IMG/VR virus record: IMGVR_UViG_3300048834_001011 | Location: 1 to 56,829 of that record | Direction: 5' to 3' (one strand) | Length of the DNA stretch: 56,829 nt | Source of the DNA: a virus | Lineage: Duplodnaviria > Caudoviricetes | Part shown: positions 33,245-53,568 of the stretch, piece after piece | Numbering within the stretch: the first letter of the stretch is position 1 | Layout of the letters: every line of letters starts with the position of its first letter | Position numbers and translations under genes: made by a program | The notes under the pieces: generated by a model | Told to the model about the DNA's origin: nothing | Database searches by the model: none | What the model saw: only the letters and a program-made list of their open reading frames with translations

Positions 33245-33277
33245 CGGACGCGGGTTCGATTCCGGGTTCCACCACCA
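33245..33277 (+). other. att-like junction: tmRNA/tRNA 3'-end-like fragment
   Basis: CGGACGCGGGTTCGATTCC...TCCACCA (T-loop plus CCA) with no 5' half of an RNA gene. Confidence 0.7.
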
Positions 33278-33520
33278 CCTACAAGGGCTCGGATAGTCTC
33301 CGGGCCCTTTCTCTTGCCTGAAATCCCCGCGCCACGCGGGGTTCCGGCCGATGGGCTTGCGGATGCCATCCTGCCGCTAGGCTCCAAAACCGGCGTTTTT
33401 CGGGCGTTTTTCCCGCCCAGAGTCGTCTCTGTCTCTGTTTTGCTTGCGGGTAGTCGCAGCCACAAGCCTTCAAAATCAACCACTTACGCGCCCTGGTTCG
33501 CTGTCAACCGCGCCCGCCAG
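33268..33520 (+). repeat. Conserved non-coding element end (copy 1); copy 2 at ~53559-53801
   Basis: Shared blocks CTTGCCTGAAATCCCCGC..GCGGGGTTCCGGCC, CCAGAG.CGTCTCTG, TGCGGGTAG.CGCAG, CAAAATCAAC.ACTTACGCG. Confidence 0.85.
33283..33312 (+). terminator. Intrinsic terminator after the junction (copy 1)
   Basis: AAGGGCTCGGA-TAGTC-TCCGGGCCCTTT; same hairpin at 53574. Confidence 0.7.
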
Positions 33521-33976
33521 TCAAGTATCGAACCGCGCCACGACCGCACGTTGCGCCGTCCAGTCCACCGGCAACGGGTTCCGCTGGAACCACAGCAGGC
33601 TCATACAGCGGGGCTGCTGCCCGGCATAGATCGCCTTCACGATGTCCGGCTCCAGCAGCGTCAGGCGCAGCAGTTCGTTGACCGTGGAATGGTGCAAGCC
33701 TTCGCGCTTGGCGATCTCACTGCCGGTTTCGACCACGCCGTCGTCGAGCAATTGCTGCCAGTAGAACGCCCGTGACAGCGCCGTCAGCAAGGGCTGGTCG
33801 TGCACGGCGGCCGTCTTGGCCTGCACCTGCGCCACAGCAGGCCGCACCACCACGGCCCGCCCGCCGCGCTTTCTGATCTTGATCGGGATGAAGGTCGTGA
33901 GCCGGATTTCGTCGCCGTCGCGCCGCTCGCGCTTTTCCGCCAACCCGGTGGCCTCGATCTTGGGTTTGTTCTTCAC
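33521..33976 (-). CDS. Recombinase-associated HTH protein (often labelled LacI-like)
   Basis: RAFYWQQLLDDG...SEIAKREGLHHSTVNELLRLTLLEPDI; overlaps the recombinase stop; paralog at 54284. Confidence 0.8.
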   Translation of the reverse strand: MKNKPKIEATGLAEKRERRDGDEIRLTTFIPIKIRKRGGRAVVVRPAVAQVQAKTAAVHDQPLLTALSRAFYWQQLLDDGVVETGSEIAKREGLHHSTVNELLRLTLLEPDIVKAIYAGQQPRCMSLLWFQRNPLPVDWTAQRAVVARFDT

Positions 33977-35307
33977 ACCGCCTCCGCTTCCAGTTCCTGC
34001 AGTTCCGCGCCGATGGTGCCGGGCAGCAAATCCATGGCCAGTTCCTGCCAGCCGAGGTCACGCCAGATGATTTCCAGCCCGGCATCACCCAGCACCACCC
34101 GCTCGATCAGCAACTGCGCCAGCCGCCGCTGCTCGGCGGGATAGAGCGTGGGCCACATCGCCGCGAGGTTGCGCATCGGCAGCACCACCTGGGGCTCGTC
34201 CATGTCAGGCCGGATGACGTGCATCCGATCCACGACCATCTGCACGATGTGCGGGGCCTGCAGCGCCATCACGATCTGCTCGACAACCAGCGATTCGATC
34301 GGTTCGGCGGGCAACGACCCGTGCCGACTGGCCCACGCACCCATGCGCCGATGCAACACCGGCGTGTAGTAGCAGTACCGTTTGCCCTTCTTGTTGGTGT
34401 AGGTCGGCATCAGCTTCTCGCCGTCGTCGGTGAACAGCAGCCCCGACAGCAAGGGTTCGACCTCGCCGCGCGCCACGCGCTTGCGTTGCCGTGCTTCCGT
34501 TTCGATCAGCGCGTGAACGGCATCCCACTGCGCCTGCGTGATGAGGGCCTGATGCTCGCCGGGGTAGCTCTGGCCCCGGTGATTGATCTCGCCCAGGTAC
34601 ATCCGGTTGTGCAGCAGCTTGTACATCGTCTGCTTGGTCAGCGGCTTGCCCACCTTGCTCAACAGCCCTTCGGTGGCGTAGGTTTTGGCCATCGTCGTGG
34701 TGGAGCCGACGTTCACGAAATCGTCGAAGATGCGCCGCACCAGCGCCGCTTCCTTCTCGTTGACGACGAGCTTGCGCTCGACCACGTCGTAGCCCAGCGG
34801 TAGCGGTCCGCCCATCCACATTCCTTTCTTCTTCGACGCCGCGATCTTGTCGCGGATGCGCTCGCCGGTGACCTCGCGCTCGAACTGCGCAAAGGACAGC
34901 AGGACGTTGAGCATCAGACGCCCCATCGAGGTGGTGGTGTTGAACTGCTGCGTCACCGACACGAACGACACGCCGCGCCGGTCGAACACCTCGACCATCC
35001 GCGCAAAGTCGGATAACGAGCGCGAGAGCCGGTCGATCTTGTAGACCACCACGACGTCCACCTTGCCGTGCTCGATGTCGGCAAGCAGGCGGCGCAACGC
35101 AGGCCGCTCCATATTGCCGCCCGAGTAGCCGCCATCCTCGAAGTGGTCGCCGACCGGAATCCAACCTTCGGCACGCTGGCTGTGGATGTAGGCGCGGCCT
35201 GCCTCGCGCTGTGCATCGATGGAATTGAAGGACTGGTCAAGGCGTTCGTCGCTGGATACGCGGCAATAGACGGCGCAGCGTTTCGGGTGCACGAGCGGCA
35301 GGTTCAT
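33973..35307 (-). CDS. Large serine recombinase (integrase)
   Basis: AVYCRVSS catalytic Ser, DGGYSG, RPALRRLL, VYKIDRLSRS, FAQFERE, GPLPLGY; ATG 35307. Confidence 0.95.
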   Translation of the reverse strand: MNLPLVHPKRCAVYCRVSSDERLDQSFNSIDAQREAGRAYIHSQRAEGWIPVGDHFEDGGYSGGNMERPALRRLLADIEHGKVDVVVVYKIDRLSRSLSDFARMVEVFDRRGVSFVSVTQQFNTTTSMGRLMLNVLLSFAQFEREVTGERIRDKIAASKKKGMWMGGPLPLGYDVVERKLVVNEKEAALVRRIFDDFVNVGSTTTMAKTYATEGLLSKVGKPLTKQTMYKLLHNRMYLGEINHRGQSYPGEHQALITQAQWDAVHALIETEARQRKRVARGEVEPLLSGLLFTDDGEKLMPTYTNKKGKRYCYYTPVLHRRMGAWASRHGSLPAEPIESLVVEQIVMALQAPHIVQMVVDRMHVIRPDMDEPQVVLPMRNLAAMWPTLYPAEQRRLAQLLIERVVLGDAGLEIIWRDLGWQELAMDLLPGTIGAELQELEAEAV

Positions 35308-35786
35308 CGCACACCCGCCTTCTGGCCGCGCAGGCCGAAAAATCGCGGCCCGTTCCACTGCACGCCCGTGATATGCCGAGCCACCGCCGACAGGCTGCGA
35401 AACGTCTTGCCTGCGTACTCGCATTCACCATCCGGTGTGACGACGACGCGATGCTCGCGTTCGTCCCATTCGCGGATCAGCACCGTGCCGGGCATCAGGT
35501 GCTGCTGGCGGCTGTCACCCGCAACCGGGTCCAGCCGGTGCTTGATCTTGGAATGCGCGGCACCGGCTTCGACCAGATGGCGGCGAATGCCGGTCGGCAC
35601 CGCGCCGTAGGCCATCTCCTGAATCCGGTAGGCCAGCCGGGATTCGAGGAAGGGGCGATTGATGTGCTTGGGCCGCCGGGGGAAGTGTTGATCCCACAGC
35701 GCCCACAGTTCGGCCATCGGCAACGCGGGCAAAACCGCGATCTGCGCCGACACGGTGCCGACGCCCGTGTTGGGGTTTCTGGTCAT
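35304..35786 (-). CDS. DUF2924 family protein
   Basis: RLAYRIQE.AYG, PGTVLIREW, SLSAVARHITGVQWNGPRFFGL; upstream of the recombinase. Confidence 0.88.
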   Translation of the reverse strand: MTRNPNTGVGTVSAQIAVLPALPMAELWALWDQHFPRRPKHINRPFLESRLAYRIQEMAYGAVPTGIRRHLVEAGAAHSKIKHRLDPVAGDSRQQHLMPGTVLIREWDEREHRVVVTPDGECEYAGKTFRSLSAVARHITGVQWNGPRFFGLRGQKAGVR

Positions 35787-35847
35787 CGAGGAATCTCCAG
35801 TGGTTGAGACATCCGCATTCAGGCGCTGTGGCGGGCAAAAGCCAAGG

Positions 35848-36258
35848 TCAAACCGTGCTCTGTGGCTGTGTAGCCAAGGGCGGTGGCGCGAATCCGACGG
35901 CGGACTCCGTATCGGTGCGGTAGCTGATGGCCTTGCCCGTGACCGGGTGGCACAGCGTGCCGAACGTCACTTCACTGCCGATGCGCTGCGCGACGACGCA
36001 GGTGTCGTCGAGATGCGCCGGAAAAACCCAGCCCCGCACGCCATCGGGCAGATGGGCAAATTCCTCGATGCTTTGCAGTAAGTGGGGTTTGCCGAGCGCG
36101 TCGGCTTCGGCCTGCGCCTGCACGATGGCGTCGGGCTCGTCGCCGACCTCGACGATGGGAATCCACAGCACGTCGTGACCCGCAGCGAACCACAGCAGGA
36201 CTTCGACCTGCATCGACGAGGCGTGCGGGCCGAGGGGATGAATGATGTGATGGCTCAC
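35848..36258 (-). CDS. Hypothetical protein
   Basis: GTG 36258 after GAAGG; globular-looking 136 aa. Confidence 0.55.
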   Translation of the reverse strand: MSHHIIHPLGPHASSMQVEVLLWFAAGHDVLWIPIVEVGDEPDAIVQAQAEADALGKPHLLQSIEEFAHLPDGVRGWVFPAHLDDTCVVAQRIGSEVTFGTLCHPVTGKAISYRTDTESAVGFAPPPLATQPQSTV

Positions 36259-36429
36259 GGGATGACCTTCAGTTCCAGGATGGGATCGGGTTGAACGGAT
36301 ACCGGTTTGCGCGATGCCTTTCGCGCTTGGCACCGGTGGGCCTCACGCGGCATGGGCGGAGTCGGACTGGCGGACACGACCAAGTTCCAGTCCGAGGCGG
36401 ACGGCGGATATGCCACGACTGCCCATGAA

Positions 36430-37275: not shown

Positions 37276-37299
37276 GGTCCGGGCTCCGGTGGTCTTGAA

Positions 37300-37614
37300 T
37301 CAGGAATGGGTGATGAACTCGGCGGGATAGCGGGCATCGCCCGGTCTGGCCACGGTGCTTGCCCACAGGCCAGGGCCGAGCGGCTTCTTGATGCCCACAG
37401 GCGCGCCGTGGCGGTGCGGACGATTCGTGGCCTGCCAACCGTGGTGAGTACCGGATGGATCGGTGGATGTGGCGGTCATCACCGCAACGGCCTGTGCCAA
37501 ATCTGTTCGGGCCCAGGGCGAGTTGGTGTCCAGCGTCTGGACGGCATCGGGTTCTTGAAAGCACAGCGCCTTGCGCCAGACCGGATGCAAATGGGACAGA
37601 TTGGAATGGCTCAC
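37300..37614 (-). CDS. Hypothetical protein
   Basis: GTG 37614 after GGAGAA; co-oriented with and 24 bp upstream of the coiled-coil gene. Confidence 0.45.
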   Translation of the reverse strand: MSHSNLSHLHPVWRKALCFQEPDAVQTLDTNSPWARTDLAQAVAVMTATSTDPSGTHHGWQATNRPHRHGAPVGIKKPLGPGLWASTVARPGDARYPAEFITHS

Positions 37615-38002
37615 TGTGTTCTCCGTTGTGGGTTGAGGATGTGCAACGTGCACAAGAGAAATGGTGGCGAAACAGAGACGTTCTGACGATCTGGGCGTAG
37701 CGGGTTTGGGCGTGTTTTGGCGTGCGAGCGCTCCCTACAGCGCCCGTCAGCGCACTCGGACCTGCTGCGGATAGACGGTTTTGCGGCGATGCTTGAGGCC
37801 ATCTGTTGCGGATGTGCATCCGAAGCCATGAGCCACATAGAGCAATGCATGGGCGGTTTGTCCTTGGTTTCAACGATTCGGCCATTTCGGGTGTTTGCCG
37901 CCACGACAGGAACCACGAAAAATCTGTTGCAACGCTCGCCGCGCAGCCCCCACCGATGGAATGTGAGGGACGCCAAGGGCACAACGACCAGAAAGGAAGT
38001 CC

Positions 38003-38230
38003 ATGAACACCATCGAACATCCGGGCCTGCTCACACCACGCCAATTGGCGGCCCGCTGGGGCATGAGCGAAAAGACCCTCGAGCGCTGGCGCACGCTGGG
38101 CACGGGCCCGATGTACCTGAAGCTCGGCAGCCGCGTGATGTATCCGCTGACCTCCATCGCGGAACACGAGCAGGGCCGGATGCGCCGCTGCACGGCAGGC
38201 CAAGAACTGTCCCAGTTCCAACACTGCTGA
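38003..38230 (+). CDS. AlpA/excisionase-like HTH protein
   Basis: LLTPRQLAARWGMSEKTLERWRTLGTGP.YLKLGSRVMY; AAAGGA RBS. Confidence 0.88.
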   Translation: MNTIEHPGLLTPRQLAARWGMSEKTLERWRTLGTGPMYLKLGSRVMYPLTSIAEHEQGRMRRCTAGQELSQFQHC

Positions 38231-40368
38231 TGTCCTCGATGCAGACGGCCTCGGCGATCAGCACGACAGCGGTCGCGTATCCGTGGTTCGACTTCAACGA
38301 TGCGGTCGCCGTCGAGCCGCGCCTGGGGAAGGAGGACATCCGTGCCCGGCTGATCGAGCAACTGGAATCGGCGCTGGCCTACCTGCTGCCGCGCGGCAAG
38401 CGACGTGGCGCGCAATTTGTCGTCGGCAATGTGCAGGGTGATGCGGGCGACAGCCTTGTTGTCGATCTCGATGGCGCAAAGCGCGGCCTGTGGCTGGACT
38501 TCGCCACCGGCGAATCCGGTGATGCGCTCGCTCTGTGGGCCACCGTGTGCGGCTTCATCCTTCCCCAGCAGTTTGATGCGCTGCTGGAGGACATCGGTCA
38601 CTGGCTGGTGGTGCCGCGTGTCGTGGTGCCGATCACGGTGCCGTCGAGCGCGCCGCACGATGAGCTTGGCCCCGCCACCGCCAAGTGGGACTACCACGAT
38701 GCCAGCGGCGCGCTGCTGGCCTGCGTTTACCGCTATGACCCGCCTGGAGGCAAGCAGTACCGCCCGTGGGATGTGAAAACACGCTCGATGCGGATGCCGG
38801 AGCCGCGTCCGCTCTACAACCTACCTGCCATCGCCGCCAGCAACGATGTCGTACTGGTCGAGGGTGAAAAATGCGCCGATGCCTTGATGCACCTCGGCAT
38901 CACGGCCACCACCGCAATGGGCGGTGCGGCTACCGCCATCGCGAAGACCGACTGGATGCCACTGGCCGGGAAGACGGTCGTCATCTGGCCTGACCACGAC
39001 GAGGCCGGATCGCGCTACGCCGATGCCGTGATTACGAGGTTGCGGCAGATCGGTGCGAAGGTACGGCGCGTGACCGTGCCTCAGGACAAGCCCAAGAAGT
39101 GGGATGCCGCCGACGCGGTGGCCGAAGGCCTGGATGTGTCGGCGCTGCTGCGCTCGTCCGCGCCGGTCGCCGATGACCTCCAGCCTCTGGAGACCATCCA
39201 GATCTCGCAGTGGCGTGCGTTGGATCGCTTCACCGGCCACCCCCAAGCCCGGCGCTGGCTGGTCGAAGGCGTGTTTCCGCAGGCGCAGGCCGCGCTGGTG
39301 GCCGCAGCAGGCGGTGTCGGTAAATCCTTCCTGCTGCTGGCCTTGGCGCGCGAGGTCGCTGCCTTCGATGGCACCAAAGACCATGCACCGATGGTGTTCG
39401 GCAGTGCATTGGCAGGCCATGGCGTGGCGATTTACATCACCGCCGAGGACGATGCCATCGAGGTGCACAACCGCCTGAACGCCCTGGGCCCGATTCCTGA
39501 CCGGCTCTACGTGCTGCCGCTGCCCGATGCCGGTGGCGCGCAGCCGCTGTTTGCACCCGACCCGGCCACACGCGGCCCGGCCACGACGGCAGCCTGGCTC
39601 GAACTGGAACGGCAACTCCGAGCGATGGCCGGGCTGCGGCTGGTGGTGCTCGATCCCCTGCAACCGCTGTGCGCGCTCGATCTCAACGTGCCCGAGAACG
39701 CGCAGTTCGTCTGCTCACGCCTGGCTGCGCTGGCGGCCCGCACCGGCGCATCGGTGATCGTGTCGCACCACTTCGCCAAACGTGAGGCGACCACACCGGA
39801 GCAGGCGCGCGAGGCGATTCGCGGCACGGGCGGACTGGTGGACGGCGTGCGGTCGGTGTACGCGTTGTGGCAGCCCAAGGAGGAACAGGCCCGCAGGCTG
39901 TGCAAGACCTTGGGCGAGCCCTTCGAGCGCGGGCGCGTGGTGCTGGGTGGCGTGGTCAAGGCCAACGGGCAGGCCGACCTGCACGTCACGACCTTCCTGC
40001 GCGATGCGCGCGGGCTGCTGGTGGATCGCAACCAGGACCTTCGGCGCACGGCGCAGCCGGACATCGAACTGCTCCCTGCATTGAAGGCCGCCATCGCCCG
40101 TGCGGCTGCCGCAGGTCAGCCCTACACCAAGACCGGCGGCAACGGCATCTACGAGCGCCGCCACGAACTGCCGGAAGACTTCCAGCGCATCGGCAAGCAT
40201 CGGCTGACCGAATGGGTCAGCGCACTGCTTGACCGCGAGGAACTGGTGATGGCGATGGCAGAAGGCTCCAAGCTGGTGAAGTGGCTGGACGTGCCCAATG
40301 GGCCCGTCGCCAACGGCGCGGCGCAGTTCGTGACCGGGCACCTGGGGCGCTCGTCCGCTGGCCGATGA
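38230..40368 (+). CDS. TOPRIM primase - AAA_25/RepA-type helicase fusion
   Basis: WLDFATGESGD, LVEGEKCADA, IWPDHDEAG, KWDAAD; AAGGVGKS Walker A, VVLDPLQ, VSHH; TGATG overlap with the HTH gene. Confidence 0.9.
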   Translation: MSSMQTASAISTTAVAYPWFDFNDAVAVEPRLGKEDIRARLIEQLESALAYLLPRGKRRGAQFVVGNVQGDAGDSLVVDLDGAKRGLWLDFATGESGDALALWATVCGFILPQQFDALLEDIGHWLVVPRVVVPITVPSSAPHDELGPATAKWDYHDASGALLACVYRYDPPGGKQYRPWDVKTRSMRMPEPRPLYNLPAIAASNDVVLVEGEKCADALMHLGITATTAMGGAATAIAKTDWMPLAGKTVVIWPDHDEAGSRYADAVITRLRQIGAKVRRVTVPQDKPKKWDAADAVAEGLDVSALLRSSAPVADDLQPLETIQISQWRALDRFTGHPQARRWLVEGVFPQAQAALVAAAGGVGKSFLLLALAREVAAFDGTKDHAPMVFGSALAGHGVAIYITAEDDAIEVHNRLNALGPIPDRLYVLPLPDAGGAQPLFAPDPATRGPATTAAWLELERQLRAMAGLRLVVLDPLQPLCALDLNVPENAQFVCSRLAALAARTGASVIVSHHFAKREATTPEQAREAIRGTGGLVDGVRSVYALWQPKEEQARRLCKTLGEPFERGRVVLGGVVKANGQADLHVTTFLRDARGLLVDRNQDLRRTAQPDIELLPALKAAIARAAAAGQPYTKTGGNGIYERRHELPEDFQRIGKHRLTEWVSALLDREELVMAMAEGSKLVKWLDVPNGPVANGAAQFVTGHLGRSSAGR

Positions 40369-40425: not shown

Positions 40426-40610
40426 CCGGGAACTGGGAATGATTTGTAGATCGTTGATCTGCAAAGGAAATCGCTGAAACAATCGTTCCCACTTCACCCC
40501 TGGGAACGATTCGACCCGGAAACGATTTTTGTCCGCGCCCGCACTGGATTTAATCGTTCCCACTCGGTCAATCGTTCCCAGCCGGGAACTGGGAAGCCGG
40601 GAACGATTGG
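40426..40610. repeat. Iteron-like repeats, putative replication origin
   Basis: AATCGTTCCC/GGGAACGATT at ~40481, 40502, 40552, 40570, 40598 in both orientations; CCGGGAACTGGGAA twice; directly after the primase. Confidence 0.65.
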
Positions 40611-40708
40611 CACGGCATGGCGGATCATTGACCGTGAGGGTGGTGACGATGGTGACGGTCACCGCCTATTGTTATGGTCGGCGCACGCAACCACGCCCCA
40701 GGCGAAAG

Positions 40709-40808
40709 GGGTCCTTCCTGGCGATATTCCAATACGGGGGGCGCGAGCGCTGCATCTCGCCACCGACAGGCCACGAAACCAGGTTACCGCCCGAGGTTAC
40801 CGGTTACC
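40709..40808 (+). other. cos-like packaging site 1 (cosQ-cosN-repeats)
   Basis: GGGTCCT (identical to lambda cosQ), N16, ATACGG-GGGGCGCGAGCG-CTGCAT, then GGTTACC x3. Confidence 0.65.
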
Positions 40809-40821: not shown

Positions 40822-40936
40822 GCAAACCGTGGCCATCGGTGCAAACCGCAAACCCCTGCAAACCTTGTTTTGGGTTCGCACGGTAGCGAAGCGTGGCGCT
40901 CACGCCTCCCGTATGGATCACGCTGAAGAAGGACCC
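40822..40936 (-). other. cos-like packaging site 2, inverted
   Basis: Minus strand: GGGTCCT, N15, ATACGG-GAGGCGTGAGCG-CCACGC, then GGTTTGC x4. Confidence 0.65.
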
Positions 40937-41285: not shown

Positions 41286-41651
41286 TCAGGCCGCTTCCTG
41301 TTCCTCGACGAGGCCGCAGTGAATCACGAAGCCTGTCAGGTAAGGCAGGCCGCGCGGGATGCCGTACTGCTTGCTGGTCTGGCGTCCAATCGTCCAGCCC
41401 ATCCACTTCTGCGTGGCGGCGATGATGGCCTGCGGCAGCGCGCGGCCGTCGTAGATAGCGTTGTGGACGTCGTCCGCGAAGTGGCGTCCGTGGCGGCTGT
41501 CGAGGAAGGCCCGGATGTTGTCGAAGTCTTCGCCCGTGGCGTCGGCGATGGCGGTCATGGCCAGCGGCCAGGCAGTGGCGGCGTGTTCGTTCATCGCGCC
41601 CCAGAAGCCCCGCGTTTCGTTGTGGGTGGCCGGGATGGTGATGTTGCTCAT
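41286..41651 (-). CDS. Phage-type hypothetical protein
   Basis: GFWG...IRAFLDSRHGRHFADDV...YGIPRGLPYLTGFV; GGAG RBS; next to DUF3489. Confidence 0.75.
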   Translation of the reverse strand: MSNITIPATHNETRGFWGAMNEHAATAWPLAMTAIADATGEDFDNIRAFLDSRHGRHFADDVHNAIYDGRALPQAIIAATQKWMGWTIGRQTSKQYGIPRGLPYLTGFVIHCGLVEEQEAA

Positions 41652-41738: not shown

Positions 41739-42293
41739 TCACGCCACGCGGTAGATGCGCTTGCCGCCGGGCTGCTTGTCGGACACCAGCGTCAGGCCCA
41801 GTTTCTTCTTGAACGCCCCGGCGAATGCGCCGCGTACCGTGTGCGCCTGCCAGCCAGTGGCATCGCAAATCTGGCGGACGGTCGCGCCTTCAGGCCGTTG
41901 CAGCATCCGCACCACCTCGGCCTGCTTGCTGTGCGCCCGCGTGCGCGGTTTGGCGCACGTCGCTTCGGCCGCGGCAACGGCGTCTTCCAGTTCCGCATCG
42001 TTCGGCGCGCCTTCGGCATTGGCGATGATCTGGCCGAGCTTGGCCTCGAACTGACCAATGCGCTTCTTGCCGATGCCGGGGCTCGGGACGCCAAGCGCGT
42101 CATAGCCTGCGGCATTGACCCTCCACAGCGTGCCAAGCTGCCCGATGAGTCCGCGGTTGGCAAGGCCTGCCAGCACCTTCTGGCGCGCGCCGCCGTGGAT
42201 GTTGGACGGGAACCATTCGACGCGTCCATCGGCGTGGTCGAGGGCGTGGGCGAGGATGGCGCGCTGGGTCGGGGTCAATGGGGCTGCTGTCAT
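41739..42293 (-). CDS. DUF3489 family protein
   Basis: SKQAEVVRMLQRPEGATVRQICDATGWQAHTVRGAFAGAFKKKLGL; AAGGAG RBS. Confidence 0.88.
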   Translation of the reverse strand: MTAAPLTPTQRAILAHALDHADGRVEWFPSNIHGGARQKVLAGLANRGLIGQLGTLWRVNAAGYDALGVPSPGIGKKRIGQFEAKLGQIIANAEGAPNDAELEDAVAAAEATCAKPRTRAHSKQAEVVRMLQRPEGATVRQICDATGWQAHTVRGAFAGAFKKKLGLTLVSDKQPGGKRIYRVA

Positions 42294-42454
42294 CGAGTGC
42301 TCCTTCAAGGATGGTGATGTGGGGCTCGATGAACGCGCTGTTTGGCCCGAAAGCCAAGCGTTTCATGGCTGGCGCAGAGATTCCCTGTTAGATTGGAGTC
42401 TTTGCGATTGAATGCGACTTTGTGCCATCCAATTGCCTACAACTGGAGCATGCC

Positions 42455-42664
42455 GTGACCGAGCCTTGGGTATCCGTCGAACAGATCGCCGAACACTTGG
42501 GCGTCAAACGCGATTCCATCTACCGCTGGATCGACCGCAAGCACCTGCCCGCGCACCGCGTGGGACGCTTGTGGAAGTTCAAGGTGACTGAGGTTGACGA
42601 CTGGGTGCGCGCCGGTGGTGCGGATGACGCCACTGGCAATGAGGCACCCACTGCAGCGCCTTGA
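42455..42664 (+). CDS. Excisionase-family HTH regulator heading the RM operon
   Basis: WVSVEQIAEHLGVKRDSIYRWI...LPAHRVGRLWKFKVTEVDDWV; GGAG RBS before GTG. Confidence 0.85.
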   Translation: MTEPWVSVEQIAEHLGVKRDSIYRWIDRKHLPAHRVGRLWKFKVTEVDDWVRAGGADDATGNEAPTAAP

Positions 42665-46461: not shown

Positions 46462-46473
46462 GGAGCGGTGACG

Positions 46474-48981
46474 ATGAGCGACTTCCAAAAGCAATACGCC
46501 CTGTGGGATGAGTTCCTGAGCGTCTGGCCCGCATCACGGCTGGCTACGATGACTCTGGACGACTACAGCCAGGCGGGGTCGAAGGACAGCTTTACCTACT
46601 GGATCGAATCGCGCCTGGATGAGCTGGGCAGCATTTGGGGAGGCTCGTCGTTCAAGTTCGGCGTGTTCTCGCGCAAAAATCTCGAAGCCCGCGAGAGTGC
46701 GGAAAACCGCAGCTACTCCGATACCCACGGCTGGTACTCCTCACTGGGTGCCACGGCCGAAGAAGCCTTTGAAAAGGTGCGTGGCTACATTGGGCAGGTC
46801 GCTGCGTTGGCCGCAAACGGCGATCTGGACGGCATTGAGGCTTTCGATCACTTGGGCGAAGCCACCAAGTGGAAGATAGCCTTCCACTACCAAAACCGGC
46901 AAGCGCCGGTGATCGTGGACATCTTCAAAAAGGCACCGCTGGCTGTCTTTGTCGGCAGCACGGCCAGCCAGTCGATGGCCGCTTTGCAGAAGGCCGCGTT
47001 GGCCAAGCGGCCCGAGGGGCTGGGTATTCTGGAATTCGGGCGGCAGGTGTGGGAGGCGTGGAGCCAGAAGAATCTGGCGGTCTGGAAGCTCTCGCACGGC
47101 AACCCGCCTAACTTCACCGACACCGAGCGCCAGCAGTATCTGGATGGGCAATGGGCGGTGATGCACCGTGACACCGGGAAGGAGCAAGGCAAGAAATTTG
47201 CCGAGGTACCGGTGGGCGCCTTGTTCTTCCTGTGCCACGGCAACAGCCCGCAGCGCATCGGCCAATTCACGTCGGCGGCCATGCCCTGCGCCAAGGGCGA
47301 TGGCTGGCTGCAGCGCAGCTACCGCGTGCTCAAGCCCGCGCAGCGCACCGACCGCTACACCGCCAACTCTAAAAATTGGTCACCACAAGGCAATTCGACC
47401 TTCTGGCAGGTGGGCGCGCACGATCTGCCGGAATTCGAATCCACCTTGCTCAAGCCGTTTTTTGGCACCGATCTGGCCGAATTGGCAGCGCTGGCCGGTG
47501 AGCCGATTGAGGCGGCCAGCTTGGGCGATGGCGTGGCACCGCCTCCGGTCGCCACACCGGGCACTGGCAACCCGCGCAACGCTACCTGCTTCAACCGCAT
47601 TTACTACGGCCCGCCCGGCACCGGCAAAACCTACACGCTGATGCAACTGCTCAAGCGTGATTACGAGCCGCAGGCCGCGTCCATCTCCACCGAAGAATGG
47701 CGCACGCAGGTCATTGCCGAGAAGGTGGCCGTGCTGAAGTGGTGGGAAGGGGCCGCTGCCGCACTGTATGACCTGGGCGGCAAGGCCAAGGTGGCGGACA
47801 TTGCGGAGCACCGGTTCATTCAGGCCATGACCGCCGCCAACGGCTCGAACCGCAGTGTGCGGCAAACGCTGTGGCGCACCCTGCAGACCCACACGGTCGA
47901 GGAGTCCACCACGGTCAAGCTGAAAAAGCGCCTGAGCCCACCCGTGTTCGACAAGACGGCAGATTCGGTGTGGCAGTTCGCCGGTGATTGGCAGGATGCC
48001 TGCGCAGATTTAATCAGCTTGGTCGATCAGCTCAACGCAGGCCAACAGGACACCGCCACGGTGCAGCGCTACAGCTTTGTGACCTTCCATCAGTCCTATG
48101 GCTACGAGGAATTCGTCGAGGGCTTGCGCCCCGTGCTGAACGGCGACGCCGAAGCGGGCGAAGTGGAATACGAAATTCGCCCCGGCGCGTTCAAGGAGTT
48201 GTGCCGCAAGGCACGGCAGGCGCCCGATCAGCGCTTTGCGATGGTCATCGACGAAATCAACCGGGGCAACATCAGCAAGATTTTTGGTGAGCTGATCACC
48301 TTGATCGAACCGGATAAGCGCGATCCCCTCGATGGCGGCAAGCCGCCCATCGAACTGACGCTGGCCTATTCGGGCGAGAAGTTTTCGGTGCCTGCCAATG
48401 TGGACATCATCGGCACGATGAACACGGCGGATCGTTCACTGGCCTTGCTGGATACGGCGCTGCGCCGCCGCTTCGATTTCGTGCCGCTGTTGCCCGACAC
48501 GCGCGCCGTGAAAGTGCCCGATGAGCCGCACAGCGCACCGCTGGCGGGCTTGGTGGTGAGCACGGACGCAGGCGAGATCGATGTGCGCCGGTTGCTGGAA
48601 CGCATCAACGAACGTATCGAGGCGCTGTACGACCGCGACCATTGCATCGGTCACGCCTACTTCACCCACCTGTGGAGTACGACGGATGGCGCGCAGCGGT
48701 TCGAAGCCCTGGCTGATACCTTCCGCAATCGCGTGTTGCCCCTACTGGAGGAATACTTCTTCGAGGACTGGCGCAAGATTCGACTGGTACTGGGCGACAA
48801 CCAGAAGCCCGATGCCGCCCAGTTCATCACCGAGAGCGATGCCCACGAGCAGGCATTGAATGACCTGTTTGGCGACGACCACGGGCTCGACAGCTACACC
48901 ACCCAGCGCCGCCATCAACTCCAGGCATCGGCATTCGCCAACCCAGCCAGCTACCTCGGCATCTACCAGTCCCTGGCTTGA
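46474..48981 (+). CDS. mcrB: McrB-family GTPase with extended N-terminal domains
   Basis: YGPPGTGKT, FVTFHQSYGYEEFVEG, DEINRGN, GTMNTADRS, LRRRF. Confidence 0.92.
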   Translation: MSDFQKQYALWDEFLSVWPASRLATMTLDDYSQAGSKDSFTYWIESRLDELGSIWGGSSFKFGVFSRKNLEARESAENRSYSDTHGWYSSLGATAEEAFEKVRGYIGQVAALAANGDLDGIEAFDHLGEATKWKIAFHYQNRQAPVIVDIFKKAPLAVFVGSTASQSMAALQKAALAKRPEGLGILEFGRQVWEAWSQKNLAVWKLSHGNPPNFTDTERQQYLDGQWAVMHRDTGKEQGKKFAEVPVGALFFLCHGNSPQRIGQFTSAAMPCAKGDGWLQRSYRVLKPAQRTDRYTANSKNWSPQGNSTFWQVGAHDLPEFESTLLKPFFGTDLAELAALAGEPIEAASLGDGVAPPPVATPGTGNPRNATCFNRIYYGPPGTGKTYTLMQLLKRDYEPQAASISTEEWRTQVIAEKVAVLKWWEGAAAALYDLGGKAKVADIAEHRFIQAMTAANGSNRSVRQTLWRTLQTHTVEESTTVKLKKRLSPPVFDKTADSVWQFAGDWQDACADLISLVDQLNAGQQDTATVQRYSFVTFHQSYGYEEFVEGLRPVLNGDAEAGEVEYEIRPGAFKELCRKARQAPDQRFAMVIDEINRGNISKIFGELITLIEPDKRDPLDGGKPPIELTLAYSGEKFSVPANVDIIGTMNTADRSLALLDTALRRRFDFVPLLPDTRAVKVPDEPHSAPLAGLVVSTDAGEIDVRRLLERINERIEALYDRDHCIGHAYFTHLWSTTDGAQRFEALADTFRNRVLPLLEEYFFEDWRKIRLVLGDNQKPDAAQFITESDAHEQALNDLFGDDHGLDSYTTQRRHQLQASAFANPASYLGIYQSLA

Positions 48982-48990
48982 GGGGGACGA

Positions 48991-50367
48991 ATGGCGCACA
49001 CCCCGATCTACGAATTCGATGCACTGGTGGCTGCCGCCACCGGTGTCACCGATGGCGTGGGGCTGCGCACGGTGCCGCCGCAGGTGTTTGCCTGGCTGGA
49101 AGCGCAGGCGCTGCGCCTGGCCGAGGTGGGTGAAACACCCTGGTTGCGCTTGACTCAGCGGCGTGGGCGACGCGCCGTACAGGTGACCCGTTTCGTCGGA
49201 GTGATACGGACCCCGGATGGCTATCAGATCGAGGTGCTGCCGAAAGTCGGCAAAGCCATTGGTGGGGGCGATGTTGAGGCGCGGCAGTTGCTGATCGAAA
49301 TGCTGCGCTGCCTGGGGGGCTTTCGCCACATCCAGACTGACAGCGCCAAGCTGTTTGCCACCCGCATGCCCTTGCTGGAAGTGTTCATCGCTGAATTCCT
49401 TCGCGCCGTGGAGCATCTCGTCAAACGCGGGCTGCGCAGCGATTACAGGGCGCAGCAAGACAACTTGTTTGCCCTGCGCGGCAAGCTGCAAATGGCGGCA
49501 CACCTGCGGCACAACCTGTGTCGGCGCGACCGTTTCTTTGCCGAGTTCGACGAGTTCTCGCCCAACCGACCGGAGAACCGTTTGCTGCACGCAGCATTGC
49601 GGCGTGTGCTCGCCTGGACGGCCTCGCAGGCCAACCAGCAACTGGCACGCGAGCTGTGCTTCGTGTTTGCCGACGTACCGGCATCGGAACACCCTGCCAC
49701 GGACTTCCAGCGAGTGCGCCTGGATCGGGGCATGGCGCATTACGAGGGGGCGTTGGCGTGGGCACGGCTGATCCTGGAGGATGAATCGCCGCTCACCGGC
49801 GCGGGCGGTCATCATGCGCCGTCCCTGCTGTTTCCGATGGAGGCAGTGTTCGAGGCCTTCGTCGCCAAGCACCTTGCACGGCAACTTGAGCAAGGCTTCG
49901 CGCTGCGCACGCAGGCCCGCAGCCTGTCCTTGGTCAGGCACCTCGAACAGAACTGGTTCCGTCTGAAACCCGATCTGCTGGTGCAGGCGTCGAAGGTCAA
50001 TCGGCTGGTTCTGGACACCAAGTGGAAGCTGATCGATGGCCAGCAGGCCACGGGTTCAGACAAATACGGCCTGGATCAGGGCGACTTCTACCAACTCCAC
50101 GCCTATGGCCAGAACTACCTCGACGGCCAAGGGGACGTGGTGTTGATCTACCCGAAGACGGATGCCTTGAACAAGGCGCTGCCAGTGTTCGAGTTTCCGA
50201 AATCGTCAGGACTGCGGTTGTGGGTGCTGCCGTTCTGCCTGAAGCGGCGTGAGCTCATCCTGCCTGCTTGCGGCAGTCTCGATGGGTGCTTCTCGCGTGG
50301 GCATTCTGCACCGTCAAGCACGGACGCTGCTAGCGATGCCGCTGCTCAAGAAGCGGTCTTGGCATGA
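48991..50367 (+). CDS. mcrC: McrC-family nuclease subunit
   Basis: FVGVI...IEVLPK, PNRPENRL, FPMEAVFE, LKPDL...LDTKWK, DFYQLHAY. Confidence 0.92.
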   Translation: MAHTPIYEFDALVAAATGVTDGVGLRTVPPQVFAWLEAQALRLAEVGETPWLRLTQRRGRRAVQVTRFVGVIRTPDGYQIEVLPKVGKAIGGGDVEARQLLIEMLRCLGGFRHIQTDSAKLFATRMPLLEVFIAEFLRAVEHLVKRGLRSDYRAQQDNLFALRGKLQMAAHLRHNLCRRDRFFAEFDEFSPNRPENRLLHAALRRVLAWTASQANQQLARELCFVFADVPASEHPATDFQRVRLDRGMAHYEGALAWARLILEDESPLTGAGGHHAPSLLFPMEAVFEAFVAKHLARQLEQGFALRTQARSLSLVRHLEQNWFRLKPDLLVQASKVNRLVLDTKWKLIDGQQATGSDKYGLDQGDFYQLHAYGQNYLDGQGDVVLIYPKTDALNKALPVFEFPKSSGLRLWVLPFCLKRRELILPACGSLDGCFSRGHSAPSSTDAASDAAAQEAVLA

Positions 50368-52733
50368 TCGACGCCGATGCATTGGCATCGCTGCGCGCCG
50401 AAAACGCGCGCCTGACCGCACTGCTGGACGCGCACGGCATCGCGTGGCGCTTGCCGCCGCAGGCGCAAACGCCGACGGTTGCGGAGCTCTCTCGGCTGAC
50501 CACCGACGAGAAGGTGGCGCTGTTCCGAACGTTATTTCGCGGTCGCACGGATGTGTATCCGATCCGCTGGGAAGGCAAGACCAGCGGCAAGTCTGGCTAC
50601 GCCCCTGCCTGCGCCAACGAGTGGCGAGCGGGCGTCTGCGAAAAACCGCGCATCAAGTGTGGCGACTGCGCTCACCGCGTCTTGCAGCCGCTGACCGATG
50701 CGGTGATCTACGACCATCTGGCCGGTGAGCACACCATCGGCGTCTATCCGCTGCTGGAAGGCGACACCTGCCATTTCCTGGCAGTCGATTTCGATGAGGC
50801 CGATTGGCGCGAGGATGCAAAGGCCTTCAGCCAGTCTTGCACCGAACTGGGCGTGTCGGCGGCACTGGAGATATCCCGCTCCGGCCAGGGCGCGCACGCC
50901 TGGGTGTTCTTCGCCAGTGCGGTATCGGCGCGCGATGCGCGTCGTCTGGGTACGGCCATCATCAGCCACGCCTGCACGCGCACCCGCCAACTTCAATTGA
51001 CGTCCTACGACCGGCTGTTCCCGAATCAGGACACGATGCCCAAGGGCGGCTTTGGCAATCTGATTGCCTTGCCTTTGCAGAAGCATCCGCGTGAGCGGGG
51101 GTTCAGCGTATTCGTGGATGCCAGTCTGCAGCCGTATCCCGACCAGTGGGCGTTTCTCGCATCCGTTGCGCGGATGCCCGCGCATGACATCGAACCGACC
51201 ATCCTGCGCGCCACGGGCGGCGCGCATCCGCTGGACGTGACCTTCATCGACGACGAGGATCTGGCCACGCCGTGGAAGCGGGAAAGCAAACCAGCCAAGC
51301 TGGCCGGTCTGATGCCCAAATCGCTGACCGTAGTCCTGGCCAATCAGATCTATTTCGAGAAGGCGCAACTGCCGCAGGCGCTGGCCAATCGCCTGATCCG
51401 GCTGGCAGCCTTTCAGAATCCGGAGTTCTATAGGGCGCAGGCGATGCGGATGTCGGTGTGGGACAAGCCGCGCATCATCGGCTGCGCCGAAAATTTTCCG
51501 CAGCACATCGCGCTGCCGCGCGGGTGTTTCGACGCCGCGCGCGACCTGTTGGTGGACAACGGCATTCGCCTCGACCTACGCGACGAGCGCCACGCCGGAA
51601 CACCCATCGCCGTCGGCTTCAGCGGCACGCTGCGCCCAGACCAGGAAGCCGCCGTGGCGGCGATGCTGGATCACGATGCTGGCGTGCTGTGCGCGCCAAC
51701 GGCCTTCGGTAAAACAGTGACGGCCGCAGCAATCATCGCCCGGCGTGGCGTCAACACCGTGGTGCTGGTACACCGAACGGAACTTCTCAAGCAGTGGCAG
51801 GTGCGCATTGCCGCATTCCTGGATGCAGGCAAGGATGTGATCGGCGTCATCGGCGGCGGCAAGAACAAGCCCACCGGCCAGATCGATATCGCGGTGATGC
51901 AATCGCTTTCGCGTCAAGGCGAGGTCGATCCACTGGTGGAAAGCTACGGGCAGGTGATCGTGGACGAATGCCACCATGTCGGTGCAGCGTCCTTCGATGC
52001 CATCCTGCGGCGTGCGAAGGTAAAACACGTGGTCGGCCTGACGGCAACGCCGATTCGTCGCGACGGGCAACAGCCCATCATCTTCATGCAGTGCGGGCCG
52101 ATCCGTCACAAGGCGGCGCAGCCGCTTGACGCGCCGCACGATCTGGCGGTGAAGCCGCAGTTCATCGAGTCTCCGATCGCTCTGCCGTCGGAGGCGGGCA
52201 TTCAGGATGTCTTCCGGCATCTGGCACAAGACGCGGCCCGCACGGCAGCCATCGCCAGCGCGATCACCGACGCCTTCCGGCAAGGCCGTAAGGTGCTCGC
52301 GTTGACCGAACGCACCGAGCACATCGACGCCATTCGCGCCGCGTTGGCGGGTCAGGTGCCGGAACCGTTCGTGTTGCACGGCCGGATGTCAAAAAAGCAG
52401 CGCGCCGCGTTGATCGCCGCACTCGATGCCTTGTCGCCGGACGCGCCGCGCGTGCTGCTGGCCACCGGCAAGCTGGTTGGCGAAGGCTTCGACCATCCAC
52501 CACTGGACACCTTGGTGCTGGCGTTGCCCGTCTCGTGGAAAGGCACGCTGCAGCAATACGCCGGTCGCCTGCACCGGGAACACGCCAGCAAGACCGATGT
52601 GCGCATCCTCGACTTCGTCGACACGGGGCATCCGGCCTTGCTGCGGATGTGGGACAAGCGCCAGCGTGGCTATCGGGCGATGGGGTATCGCCTCGATTCG
52701 GGTGCGCCGTCTGTCGGGCGTTTCGAATGGTGA
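50364..52733 (+). CDS. AEP-type primase-like domain (TOTE-conflict type) fused to an SF2 helicase
   Basis: GVYPLL..DTC.FLAVDFD, EISRSGQGAHAW, GNLIALPLQ; APTAFGKT, DECHH, GLTATP, EGFD, QYAGRLHR; ATGA overlap with mcrC. Confidence 0.85.
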   Translation: MIDADALASLRAENARLTALLDAHGIAWRLPPQAQTPTVAELSRLTTDEKVALFRTLFRGRTDVYPIRWEGKTSGKSGYAPACANEWRAGVCEKPRIKCGDCAHRVLQPLTDAVIYDHLAGEHTIGVYPLLEGDTCHFLAVDFDEADWREDAKAFSQSCTELGVSAALEISRSGQGAHAWVFFASAVSARDARRLGTAIISHACTRTRQLQLTSYDRLFPNQDTMPKGGFGNLIALPLQKHPRERGFSVFVDASLQPYPDQWAFLASVARMPAHDIEPTILRATGGAHPLDVTFIDDEDLATPWKRESKPAKLAGLMPKSLTVVLANQIYFEKAQLPQALANRLIRLAAFQNPEFYRAQAMRMSVWDKPRIIGCAENFPQHIALPRGCFDAARDLLVDNGIRLDLRDERHAGTPIAVGFSGTLRPDQEAAVAAMLDHDAGVLCAPTAFGKTVTAAAIIARRGVNTVVLVHRTELLKQWQVRIAAFLDAGKDVIGVIGGGKNKPTGQIDIAVMQSLSRQGEVDPLVESYGQVIVDECHHVGAASFDAILRRAKVKHVVGLTATPIRRDGQQPIIFMQCGPIRHKAAQPLDAPHDLAVKPQFIESPIALPSEAGIQDVFRHLAQDAARTAAIASAITDAFRQGRKVLALTERTEHIDAIRAALAGQVPEPFVLHGRMSKKQRAALIAALDALSPDAPRVLLATGKLVGEGFDHPPLDTLVLALPVSWKGTLQQYAGRLHREHASKTDVRILDFVDTGHPALLRMWDKRQRGYRAMGYRLDSGAPSVGRFEW

Positions 52734-52765
52734 TGTCGGTTGGGTAGGGCGTCGGAACAGGCGGG

Positions 52766-52795
52766 TAGACAATCTATGCCACTCGGTGGCACAAT
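52766..52795 (+). promoter_or_regulatory. TA promoter with palindromic operator
   Basis: TAGACA-N18-CACAAT enclosing TGCCAC-TCG-GTGGCA. Confidence 0.55.
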
Positions 52796-52802
52796 AGAGC
52801 CG

Positions 52803-53174
52803 ATGACGCGAGTGTTCAAAACTCGCCACTTCCAGCGATGGATGCGCAAGACGGAGCTCACCGATGCCGTCCTGTGCAAGGCCGTTCAGGAGATGGCGGC
52901 CGGCCTGATCGACGCTGACCTCGGCGGCAGCGTGGTGAAGAAACGCGTTGGGCTGGCGGGGCGTGGCAAGCGTGGCGGCGTGCGCACACTGGTCGCCACC
53001 AACAAGGGCAACCGTTGGTTCTTCGTGTTCGGTTTCGAGAAGAACGAACGGGCGAATGTCAGCGACGAGGAACTCGAAGGCTTGCAGACCATCGCCGCCG
53101 ACCTGCTGGCTCGAACAGGCCCGCAACTGGATGAAGCCGTTGCCGACGGCGCTTTGCAGGAGATTTGCCAATGA
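52803..53174 (+). CDS. RelE/HigB-2-like toxin
   Basis: DADLGGSVVKKRV...GRGKRGGVRT...FVFGFEKNERANVS. Confidence 0.88.
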   Translation: MTRVFKTRHFQRWMRKTELTDAVLCKAVQEMAAGLIDADLGGSVVKKRVGLAGRGKRGGVRTLVATNKGNRWFFVFGFEKNERANVSDEELEGLQTIAADLLARTGPQLDEAVADGALQEICQ

Positions 53175-53488
53175 CCACCAAGACCAAGAGCCGCATGCTC
53201 GAAGCCGTCCACGAATCGGCCAGCGATCTGCATCGCCTGGGATTCATCGACAAGCGCAAGATGCAGAAATACGACGCGCTGTGCCTGGAGCCGGTACAGG
53301 ACTACGACGCCGAAAAGGTCAAGGCGCTGCGCGAGCGATTGCACCTGAGCCAGGCTGTGCTGGCCAGCGTGCTGAACACCAGCACGTCCACTGTCCGCAA
53401 GTGGGAGGTGGGCGACAAGCGCCCGAGCGGGCCGTCGCAGAAGCTGCTGGACATCCTCGAGCGCAAGGGACTGGAAGCAGTTCTTTGA
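53171..53488 (+). CDS. XRE-family HTH antitoxin (HigA-2-like)
   Basis: LRERLHLSQAVLASVLNTSTSTVRKWEVGDKRPSGPSQKLL; ATGA overlap. Confidence 0.9.
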   Translation: MTTKTKSRMLEAVHESASDLHRLGFIDKRKMQKYDALCLEPVQDYDAEKVKALRERLHLSQAVLASVLNTSTSTVRKWEVGDKRPSGPSQKLLDILERKGLEAVL

Positions 53489-53538
53489 TCCGCCCATTGC
53501 CGCTCACGCCCGCTGCATTGCTATTCAAGCGACGGAGA

Positions 53539-53568
53539 CGGAATTGAACCGGCGTCCGTCCACCACCA
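53539..53568 (+). other. att-like junction 2 (20-bp core inverted relative to junction 1)
   Basis: Reverse complement CGGACGCCGGTTCAATTCCG matches 33245-33264 at 18/20; followed by TCCACCACCA. Confidence 0.7.

Follow-up and report, generated by a model that had tools for sequence, protein, structure and literature searches.

We analysed a stretch of DNA of 56,829 bp, hereinafter the window, which is the complete IMG/VR virus record IMGVR_UViG_3300048834_001011 (linear class, CheckV completeness 68%). Positions 33272-53562 of the window, adjoining a lambda-like prophage, are best explained as one copy of a lineage of cos-type phage satellites of Burkholderiales, derived from the phage family of this prophage and probably packaged by it. 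We put the probability of this reading at about 0.62. The unit of 20,291 bp between the crossover cores at 33272 and 53563 is called the element below. A preliminary description of the same DNA had proposed a satellite at 33265-53558, which is correct within approximately 20 nt, as judged by the break of homology with relatives at the left and the conserved end at the right. Genes in the window (G+C content approximately 60-69%) were chosen by third-position G+C and named via Pfam, PHROGs and PADLOC. The coordinates are collected in Table 1; loci and genomes are denoted by L and G with a number.

No terminase, capsid or tail families were found in the element by the Pfam, PHROG and PADLOC scans of called open reading frames (ORFs), and no relaxase, coupling protein or other conjugation family by the general Pfam and PHROG scans, in agreement with the preliminary description. 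A tblastn search with the gpA-type large terminase of the relatives gave no match in the window. The same search, whose database comprised the loci other than L127-L133, found the family terminase in 31 loci, none of which is the window, L004, L005, L007, L009 or L012. The largest cargo ORFs of four relatives are defence genes (small ORFs were scanned in part). The element appears to lack terminase and virion genes while having an integrase of its own and defined ends, as is expected of a satellite.

The same core was found in 12 further close loci, whose primase-helicases share 84-96% identity with that of the element; their bins carry the names Ramlibacter, Acidovorax, Alcaligenaceae and Burkholderiaceae. 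Complete units have similar lengths: 20,291 bp in the window, 19,989 bp in G003, 20,506 bp in G002 and 20,533 bp in G004, a spread within 2.7%. The core is collinear in all four. It consists of genes for a ParB-HTH (helix-turn-helix) protein, a serine recombinase, a DUF2924 protein, two lineage-specific proteins and a primase-helicase, then iterons, and genes for a 121-aa protein and a DUF3489 protein. The ratio of nonsynonymous to synonymous substitution rates (dN/dS), computed against up to five relatives, is 0.06-0.61 in all eight supported core genes, which suggests selection and retained function. Among public sequencing runs, the best hold at most 27% of the sampled words, all from wastewater or sludge contigs. 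Four runs contain short pieces of relatives; the joints in them have just 20-46 letters on a side, and ends do not pile up.

The central result concerns a conserved noncoding site, which retains 70-84% nucleotide identity even beside flanking proteins that are approximately 45% identical. The ends of lambda DNA were fetched and aligned to this site, and a search pattern was derived from lambda cos. Lambda DNA ends with ...ACGGGTCCTTTCCGGTGATCCGACAGGTTACG and starts with GGGCGGCGACCTCGCGGGTTTTCGCTA. The family site reads GGGTCCTTCC, followed by a gap of 17-19 nt and then by GGGGGGCGCGAG CGCGGCATTTCGCTA. The lambda-derived pattern has exactly two matches in the window, at 40709-40760 on the direct strand and 40886-40936 on the complementary one, against 0.01 expected; none of 100 shuffled sequences reached two. 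It matched 30 of 126 loci. The heptamer GGGTCCT, which we take to be cosQ, is separated from the G-rich 12-mer by 26-27 nt, compared with 30 nt in lambda; in the alignment with the lambda ends the heptamer precedes the 12-mer by 27-30 nt. A hand count on the printed ends gives 20 of 27 ungapped positions after the nick that are common to lambda and L109 or L055. By sequence, the cos-like sites of the preliminary description are true lambda-type cos sites, at which nicking by a terminase is predicted.

Downstream of the cos core there are three to five direct repeats of 7-8 nt, whose sequence depends on the lineage: GGTTACC, GGTTTGC, GGTTCGC or, in alphaproteobacterial relatives, CTTGAC. In full phages of the family the ACC type was observed in 17 loci, the TGC type in 28 and the CGC type in five. 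The first repeat of cos-1 lies at bp 47 from the presumed nick, which corresponds to the place of R3 in lambda. According to the available part of the source that names cosQ, cosN and cosB as parts of cos, R3 lies at bp 50-65 in lambda, and in N15 R3, its single R, at bp 48-60 (PMC9026076). The element carries two inverted cos sites of different repeat types, and the same holds for nine of the ten elements whose cos region is fully covered (the window, L004, L007, L009, L012, L127, L129, L130 and L133), the tenth, L005, having one. None of 60 typed phage-like loci has two sites; these loci, including the full phages with the same core family, have one each. Both repeat types of the element occur in full phages, and the packaging signal seems to be matched to the type of the helper in the manner of satellites.

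To see which protein tracks the repeat type, the types were placed as labels on trees. The number of changes is five in 27 rows for the 121-aa protein (12.4 in shuffles), 14 in 60 for the primase (27.7), eight in 25 for DUF3489 (10.9), seven in 20 for DUF2924 (9.2) and five in 11 for the recombinase (5.5). As kin have labels in common, these counts do not single out one protein. Two other roles of the site were considered. A structured RNA was rejected, as Rfam gave nothing and RNAalifold on 34 copies yielded six pairs, none of them with a compensatory change. A replication origin is disfavoured by the private iterons located elsewhere and by the alignment of the site to lambda cos. Comparison with 50,697 records of cultured phages produced no blastn match for the cos region, and the only match of the core was 459 nt of the recombinase gene in a Ralstonia phage.

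Distant homologues of the recombinase module, the N-terminal part of the primase, the 121-aa protein and DUF3489 were observed in many viral contigs. The primase-helicase is 45-53% identical to the phage versions. In all five larger viral records with the distant core, the major head protein shares 65-81% identity with its counterpart in the window prophage. The gene order in the full phages of G006 and G009 runs from recombinase and DUF2924 through an HTH-M78 repressor-like gene, early genes and a 755-aa primase protein to DUF6362 and the cos site, after which come two ParB_N-methylases, the 121-aa protein, DUF3489, the gpA-type large terminase, and the head and tail genes. The window prophage is 77-90% identical to these phages in the protease, major head, tail terminator, major tail and tape measure proteins, and 47-60% in three distal tail proteins. 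In sequence, the core genes of the element have diverged from homologues among the early and cos-proximal genes that full temperate phages carry, and the neighbouring prophage is one of these phages. The earlier suggestion of a helper with lambda-type heads is strengthened by the cos sites, by the gpA-type terminase of the full phages and by the similarity of their structural genes to those of the prophage. As for the small terminase subunit, the first ORF past cos in the family is a ParB_N-methylase that does not vary with the repeat type, and no conserved small ORF was seen before the large terminase gene.

The same cos core with CTTGAC repeats was observed in L014, L016 and L043-L055 (Thalassospira and marine contigs). 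These alphaproteobacterial relatives keep the order primase, cos, methylase, DUF3489, terminase, and thus the phage family spans at least two classes of proteobacteria.

In relatives, units of this kind lie at the TCCACCA 3' end of a gene for transfer-messenger RNA (tmRNA). Homology with L004, L005, L007 and L009 begins abruptly at 33244-33246, and its first 32 nt are the 3' end of a tmRNA gene. Three close relatives offer both a left flank of 5 kb and a tmRNA call, and in all three the left end directly follows this gene (L004, L007, L009; the ARAGORN calls end exactly there), and a tmRNA-like 3' end also lies 5' of L129 and L133. No tmRNA gene is present in the window itself, where the left junction is formed by a variant tmRNA end with five substitutions relative to L004 and L007. 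The 51.3 kb prophage of G005 ends in an identical variant and the 50.0 kb prophage of G006 in a similar one, and the variant recurs in L011, L038 and L042. The right end is retained up to ...GACGGAATTGAACCGGCGTCCGTCCACCACCA (53568), beyond which the flanks differ. The two junctions have just TCCACCA(CCA) in common, and such a short shared core fits a serine recombinase. An exact search for the empty attachment site with a 36-nt flank matched the source contig alone.

When the record was compared with itself, 33268-34124 was found to recur with 75-76% identity at 53559-54881, and the P' arm with the core is repeated at 53563-53595. The window is likely to be a tandem array at one integration core, composed of the prophage (to 33271), the element and a decayed second element cut by an insertion sequence (IS). 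Similar stacking of elements is seen in G002. The preliminary description placed the element beside its likely helper. A prophage of the same family does adjoin it, because both use one integration core. However, this adjacency is not general, as in L004, L007 and L009 the element stands directly on the tmRNA gene, and the endolysin of the prophage looks broken.

Other targets and remnants were observed as well. Positions 3331-3390 of L131 abut another T-arm-like 3' end (...GGTTCGATCCCCTTCCTCTCCACCA), possibly of a tRNA gene instead of the tmRNA gene, which suggests that a gene end needs no more than the TCCACCA core to be a target. Sites resembling the tmRNA end, 1.4-6 kb apart, lie 3' of the tmRNA gene at 52136-62678 of contig C10 in G002 (L038, L005) and in contig C124 of G001 (L042), forming arrays of small remnants between integration cores.

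In the leftward arm, the recombinase has all the parts of a large serine recombinase, at least by family matches: a catalytic domain (PF00239 Resolvase, 2.4e-42), a Recombinase domain (PF07508, 5.8e-14) and a zinc ribbon (PF13408, 2e-4), the latter scoring 22.0 bits, under the 25.3-bit cut-off. Among PHROGs it matches phrog_95, integrase (3.6e-102). The gene of the 151-aa HTH protein is co-transcribed downstream of it, with the same placement in elements and phages, and this protein is possibly an accessory or directionality factor. The 161-aa protein has no Pfam, PHROG or Atlas match, and its tblastn matches are confined to close relatives. The coiled-coil protein has generic coiled-coil matches alone in Pfam, all below cut-off. 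Neither of these two proteins occurs in any of 80 viral loci, and the coiled-coil protein is a candidate for interaction with the helper. An Atlas lead to Psu for this protein (0.88, rank 14) was not supported, as there was no match to Psu at Pfam E<=10 or with a PDB profile. PDB sequence searches with three proteins of the element gave nothing useful.

The control region separates this arm from the primase-helicase, where the preliminary description had placed AlpA. That assignment is not supported: the ORF in question (37455-37700) has no Pfam or PHROG match and a dN/dS of 1.8-3.4 against four relatives, and the sole HTH_17/AlpA-type gene lies beyond the cos sites, at the head of the cargo. 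The 441-nt spacer as a whole has dN close to dS in all six frames, none of which is clearly coding. The other nine of the ten genes and features listed earlier are present, from the leftward arm (HTH, serine recombinase, DUF2924, an ORF of no recognised family, coiled coil) through the primase-helicase and the iterons to DUF3489, the defence genes and the toxin-antitoxin pair.

The primase-helicase combines AAA_25 (8e-32) with Toprim_2 (7e-6) and matches phrog_239, DNA primase/helicase (2.6e-44). The iteron stretch matches only relatives of the 20-kb lineage, not phages. The GGGAACGATT iterons presumably form the origin for this primase-helicase, and so the element seems to have its own replication module with an origin, again as satellites do. 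A stem-loop at 40375-40439, just 3' of the primase-helicase stop codon, is 87-96% identical to Ralstonia megaplasmids over 45-65 nt and is possibly a widespread terminator or repeat element.

Two genes lie between the cos sites and the cargo arm. In phages the 121-aa gene is situated between cos and the large terminase gene, and its homologues in elements and phages are 52-90% identical. The AlphaFold model of the protein (predicted local distance difference test score, pLDDT, 92) is all-helical, with no PDB fold match at E<=0.001. The protein is conserved from alpha- to betaproteobacterial phages, near the terminase region. The model of the DUF3489 protein has a pLDDT of 79 and predicts two winged-helix DNA-binding domains; its best Foldseek matches are generic winged-helix regulators with E of approximately 0.03. 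In L007 (13798-14978) the cassette of these two genes is inverted relative to 41285-42373 of the window and to other relatives.

A motif of approximately 45 nt, GAACGCGCT-N12-AGCCAAGC, occurs in the window three times, against 0.07 expected (33026-33071, 41679-41720 and 42329-42374), each time 21-76 nt upstream of a leftward gene; in the prophage this gene is DUF499, and in the element the genes are those of the 121-aa and DUF3489 proteins. Similar stretches were seen in several phage-relative loci, in the case of L119 just past the DUF2924 gene. The motif may be a shared promoter or operator that ties the regulation of the phage and the element.

The cargo arm is headed by the HTH_17 protein, which is 92-96% identical in L012 and L127 and has a weak match to a small terminase family (phrog_57, 2e-5). 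Downstream of it, the cargo at 42700-53488 takes approximately 11 kb, about half of the element. Relatives carry other defence systems, namely type I restriction-modification (RM) sets of various kinds, SIR2, DUF1828/1829 and TOTE. The segment from the HTH_17 gene to the right end is a variable defence slot.

Table 1. Features of the window at and around the element
Feature	Position	Strand	Remarks
Prophage, right-hand 33 kb	1..33271	+	lambda-like, same family as the full phages; structural genes by Pfam/PHROG
tmRNA-3'-end-like 32 nt, ending in core TCCACCA(CCA)	33246..33277	+	right-end arm of upstream prophage; left junction of element
Core + element-side arm (P'), CCACCA..TACAAGGGCTCGGATAGTCTCCGGG, left end of element	33272..33304	+	kept in L004, L005, L007, L009, L011, L039
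HTH protein, 151 aa	33521..33976	-	phrog_14161, E 1.3e-45; HTH_ParB, E 0.007, below cut-off; dN/dS 0.06-0.26
Large serine recombinase (integrase), 483 aa	33973..35424	-	Resolvase, Recombinase, Zn_ribbon_recom; dN/dS 0.15-0.29
DUF2924 protein	35304..35786	-	PF11149, 1.1e-44; always upstream of recombinase, in elements and phages
161-aa protein	35848..36333	-	20-kb lineage only; dN/dS 0.23-0.45
Coiled-coil protein, 281 aa	36430..37275	-	20-kb lineage only; dN/dS 0.33-0.38
Divergent control region, leftward arm vs primase-helicase	37276..37716	.	79-95% nt identity to relatives
Primase-helicase, 883 aa (Toprim + AAA_25/RepA-like helicase)	37717..40368	+	dN/dS 0.21-0.25
Iteron array, GGGAACGATT in both orientations	40426..40615	.	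repeat families D2, D4, D6, D16; inverted pairs I2, I21
cos-1	40709..40808	+	presumed cosQ GGGTCCT 40709-40715; G-rich 12-mer 40736-40747; three GGTTACC repeats 40782-40808
cos-2, inverted	40822..40936	-	presumed cosQ 40936-40930; 12-mer 40910-40899; four GGTTTGC repeats (GCAAACC on +) 40822-40864
121-aa all-helical protein	41286..41651	-	phrog_8020, 3.4e-44; common to phages
DUF3489 protein	41739..42308	-	PF11994, 1.5e-31; phrog_10315; common to phages
HTH_17 (AlpA/excisionase/MerR-type) protein, heads cargo arm	42422..42664	+	PF12728, 5.2e-16; phrog_66 excisionase/regulator, 6e-13
Type IIG RM	42700-46461	+	Pfam, PADLOC
McrB-like	46468-48981	+	Pfam, PADLOC
McrC	48991-50367	+	Pfam, PADLOC
TOTE primase-helicase	50364-52733	+	Pfam, PADLOC
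RelE-like toxin	52740-53174	+	Pfam, PADLOC
Xre antitoxin	53165-53488	+	Pfam, PADLOC
Right-end arm (P) + core TCCACCACCA, right end of element	53535..53568	+	kept in L041, L036 up to core, flanks then diverge
Remnant of second, ~75% identical element in tandem	53563..54881	+	P' arm, HTH ORF homologue, recombinase 3' end; cut by IS3-family element
IS3-family transposase (HTH_21 + rve)	54912-55952		interrupts recombinase gene of decayed second element

By analogy with P4 and the cos-type phage-inducible chromosomal islands (PICIs) from E. coli, we infer excision, replication, packaging and dependence on a helper. Upon infection by a phage of the family, or its induction, the recombinase would excise the element, and the primase-helicase would replicate it from the iterons into concatemers. 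The helper terminase would cut at the cos site whose repeats suit its small subunit and fill heads made by the helper. Units of 19,989-20,533 bp would fit two per head of a phage of approximately 50 kb, or one per smaller head, and two cos dialects would broaden the range of usable helpers. The helper size, approximately 50-57 kb, derives from the prophages of G005 and G006 and an estimate for the window prophage. Two units, 40.6 kb, make approximately 81% of 50 kb; one makes approximately 0.41, near the value of (4/7)^1.5 = 0.43 for T=4 and T=7 heads, although this is arithmetic, not evidence.

One tentative extension, to which we give somewhat less than even odds, is a 'bilingual' satellite. 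Its two inverted cos sites, alike in the cutting site but with different repeats for the small terminase, would be used by two helper groups that package it in opposite directions, and its length would be set by head capacity, a full head taking two units or a reduced head one. As serine integration of helper and satellite uses the same tmRNA-end core, the two would come to lie in tandem arrays, building composite defence islands such as the one at this locus.

Several observations weigh against a packaged satellite. Its mobilization is supposed by analogy, and so is the role of the repeats as cosB, which relies on their position, the small terminase subunit of the helper family not having been found. 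The cos sites could be inherited relics. A cos phage of 50 kb would not package a single genome as short as 20 kb, so that dimers or small heads would be needed. No Rpp-, Sid-, Psu- or small-terminase-like gene was recognised, Rpp being judged by position and Pfam and Psu by Pfam and a PDB profile. The family terminase query matched in one of four carrier genomes (incomplete bins), at 39% identity and in a different phage. A search with the primase-helicase gave 80 IMG/VR loci, all of them distant (identity at most 53%), the lineage being unseen as a free viral contig, and none of seven close metagenome contigs is a circle of approximately 20 kb. Finally, the endolysin gene of the adjacent prophage looks frameshifted, and the cos of this prophage falls outside the window, beyond comparison of its type; the prophage is a candidate for the helper type.

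The element could instead be a phage-derived integrative defence island, moved by its serine recombinase but not specifically packaged, with relic cos sites and spread by generalised transduction, transformation or an unrecognised oriT. This is the most serious competitor, though we regard it as rather unlikely. It agrees with the large share of defence cargo, with the lack of any recognised gene for redirecting packaging or remodelling capsids, with the absence of a free viral contig of approximately 20 kb of this lineage among those searched, and with the three of four carrier genomes that have no match to the family terminase. However, relics would hardly be duplicated, inverted and kept as two types in nine of ten elements when none of the 60 phage-like loci shows this arrangement. 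Further, cosQ and the 12-mer are intact and match the pattern exactly, the unit length stays within 2.7% despite cargo turnover, and the general scans revealed no conjugation machinery.

Decay is a less probable explanation still. The preliminary description had considered that the unit might be a one-off deletion derivative of a full prophage, in this case an immobile one that has lost its late genes. Indeed, all core genes but the two lineage-specific proteins have homologues in full phages, and the next copy downstream is visibly decayed and cut by an IS. The result nevertheless favours a satellite: the same architecture occurs in at least 12 further loci, in bins named as different genera, the ends are conserved, and the core is intact, with the low dN/dS given above. 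The divergence of the primase-helicase from phage versions (45-53% identity), the private iterons and the two proteins absent from phages point to an old and distinct lineage, not to a recent deletion. Least probable of all is that the 20 kb are the early arm of the neighbouring prophage, one phage covering the whole window. The order head, tail, lysis, cargo, integrase, replication does resemble a permuted lambda map. However, the prophage has its right end at 33246-33277, of the type seen in the 50.0 kb and 51.3 kb prophages of G006 and G005, and full phages have cos, methylases and terminase after the replication genes, where here there are defence genes and the end of the element. This junction, together with the units that stand alone at the tmRNA gene in L004, L007 and L009, refutes it.

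The late region of the prophage (1-19920, direct strand) is that of a lambda-like siphovirus, with a gpC-type protease, a lambda gpD decoration protein, the major head protein, tail terminator, major tail protein, tape measure, distal tail proteins and lysozyme. Its endolysin gene (19440-19920) appears split: the signal-anchor-like N-terminal part, ending in ...LHEGY, hits a stop in one frame, and the Pfam lysozyme match, covering profile positions 48-125 only, sits in another. The split may reflect a genuine frameshift or deletion, or else a mistake in the assembly. The lysis genes are followed by a defence block on the complementary strand (20461-32995) with PDC-S14, PLD-helicase, DUF1156 methylase, DarG, DarT, DUF3780 and DUF499, in which the DarT-DarG pair is inserted within a DUF499/DUF3780/DUF1156-methylase/PLD-helicase system. 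Inside this block, at 25001-27000, G+C dips to 0.50-0.56. The Rfam scan of the window found one tRNA and nothing else. A tRNA-Ser gene (56085-56174), 3' of the IS, has no role in integration.

Satellites are well described in Enterobacterales, Vibrio and Firmicutes, and the element, if the satellite reading is true, adds a family from environmental Betaproteobacteria. Its origin from the lineage of its own helper is still legible, because the integrase module, cos and the cos-proximal genes are shared. Two cos sites with different repeat dialects offer a handle on whether several packaging signals widen the helper range of a satellite. The defence slot shows turnover of type I, type IIG and type IV restriction, TOTE, SIR2 and toxin-antitoxin genes, and such turnover, together with stacking with prophages at the tmRNA gene, would give defence islands a tangible means of growing and spreading. 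A serine integrase with a short core at the CCA end of tmRNA may be of interest for new integrase target sites.

Open-access text on satellites with two cos sites was limited to a general review, and that on DUF2924 and DUF3489 yielded nothing relevant. Comparison with known satellites starts from the Gram-negative cos-type PICIs (EcCICFT073 type of E. coli, with Rpp hijacking lambda-like helpers). Like these, the element is integrated, lacks virion genes and has its own integrase, replication module and origin, and packaging by a gpA/Nu1-type terminase would apply to it by analogy. The cos of PICIs comprises cosQ and cosN like those of lambda-like helpers, according to the parts of the sources available (PMC9026076; PMC6739421). 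The differences are substantial. The integrase of the element is a large serine recombinase instead of a tyrosine recombinase, and it targets the tmRNA gene at its CCA end. The primase has no alpA beside it, and 11 kb of the 20 kb unit are cargo. As far as position and Pfam can tell, cos is not followed by an rpp-like gene; no gene follows either cos. The cosB of PICIs is described in the available text as private and without repeats (PMC9026076), whereas the element has two inverted cos sites with repeats of types found in full phages. The element does not have the defining set of these PICIs, that is, a tyrosine integrase, alpA upstream of pri-rep and rpp beside cos.

With P4-like satellites the element shares the cos-dependent hijacking logic, a primase-helicase with iterons and a size of approximately 0.35-0.4 of that of the helper; these satellites are also described, in the accessible part of one paper, as having a defence hotspot (PMC13586616). 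Unlike P4, it has a serine recombinase, and its helper type, rather than P2-like, is that of lambda-like phages with a gpA terminase. Psu, Sid, Delta and P4-alpha were not detected in the element, Psu being the only one searched for (Pfam E<=10, PDB profile). The set that marks P4-like satellites (Psu, Sid, Delta, Ash, P4-alpha primase, tyrosine integrase) does not describe it.

The PICI-like elements (PLEs) of Vibrio cholerae, module 3 of the virion-encapsidated integrative mobile elements (VEIMEs) and tycheposons resemble the element in that their integrase is a large serine recombinase, accompanied by a replication module and cargo. Serine recombinases are reported for PLEs and 91% of module 3 VEIMEs in the available part of a paper, which does not mention lambda-type cos for either (PMC9618062). 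The reference PLEs, in the text available, have the lytic helper ICP1. These systems, compared by description only, differ from the element in being marine or from Vibrio.

SaPIbov5, a cos-type Staphylococcus aureus pathogenicity island (SaPI), can use both cos and pac helpers and so has two packaging routes. Like the element, it is a satellite bearing a helper-type cos, as stated in the accessible parts of two papers (PMC5052747; PMC8569155). Unlike the element, it has a Gram-positive host, a tyrosine integrase and the capsid homologue Ccm for size redirection, and it is not known to have two cos sites that differ in cosB type. Overall, the nearest described systems are the cos-PICIs of E. 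coli and P4, while satellites with serine recombinases are already known from PLEs and one VEIME module.

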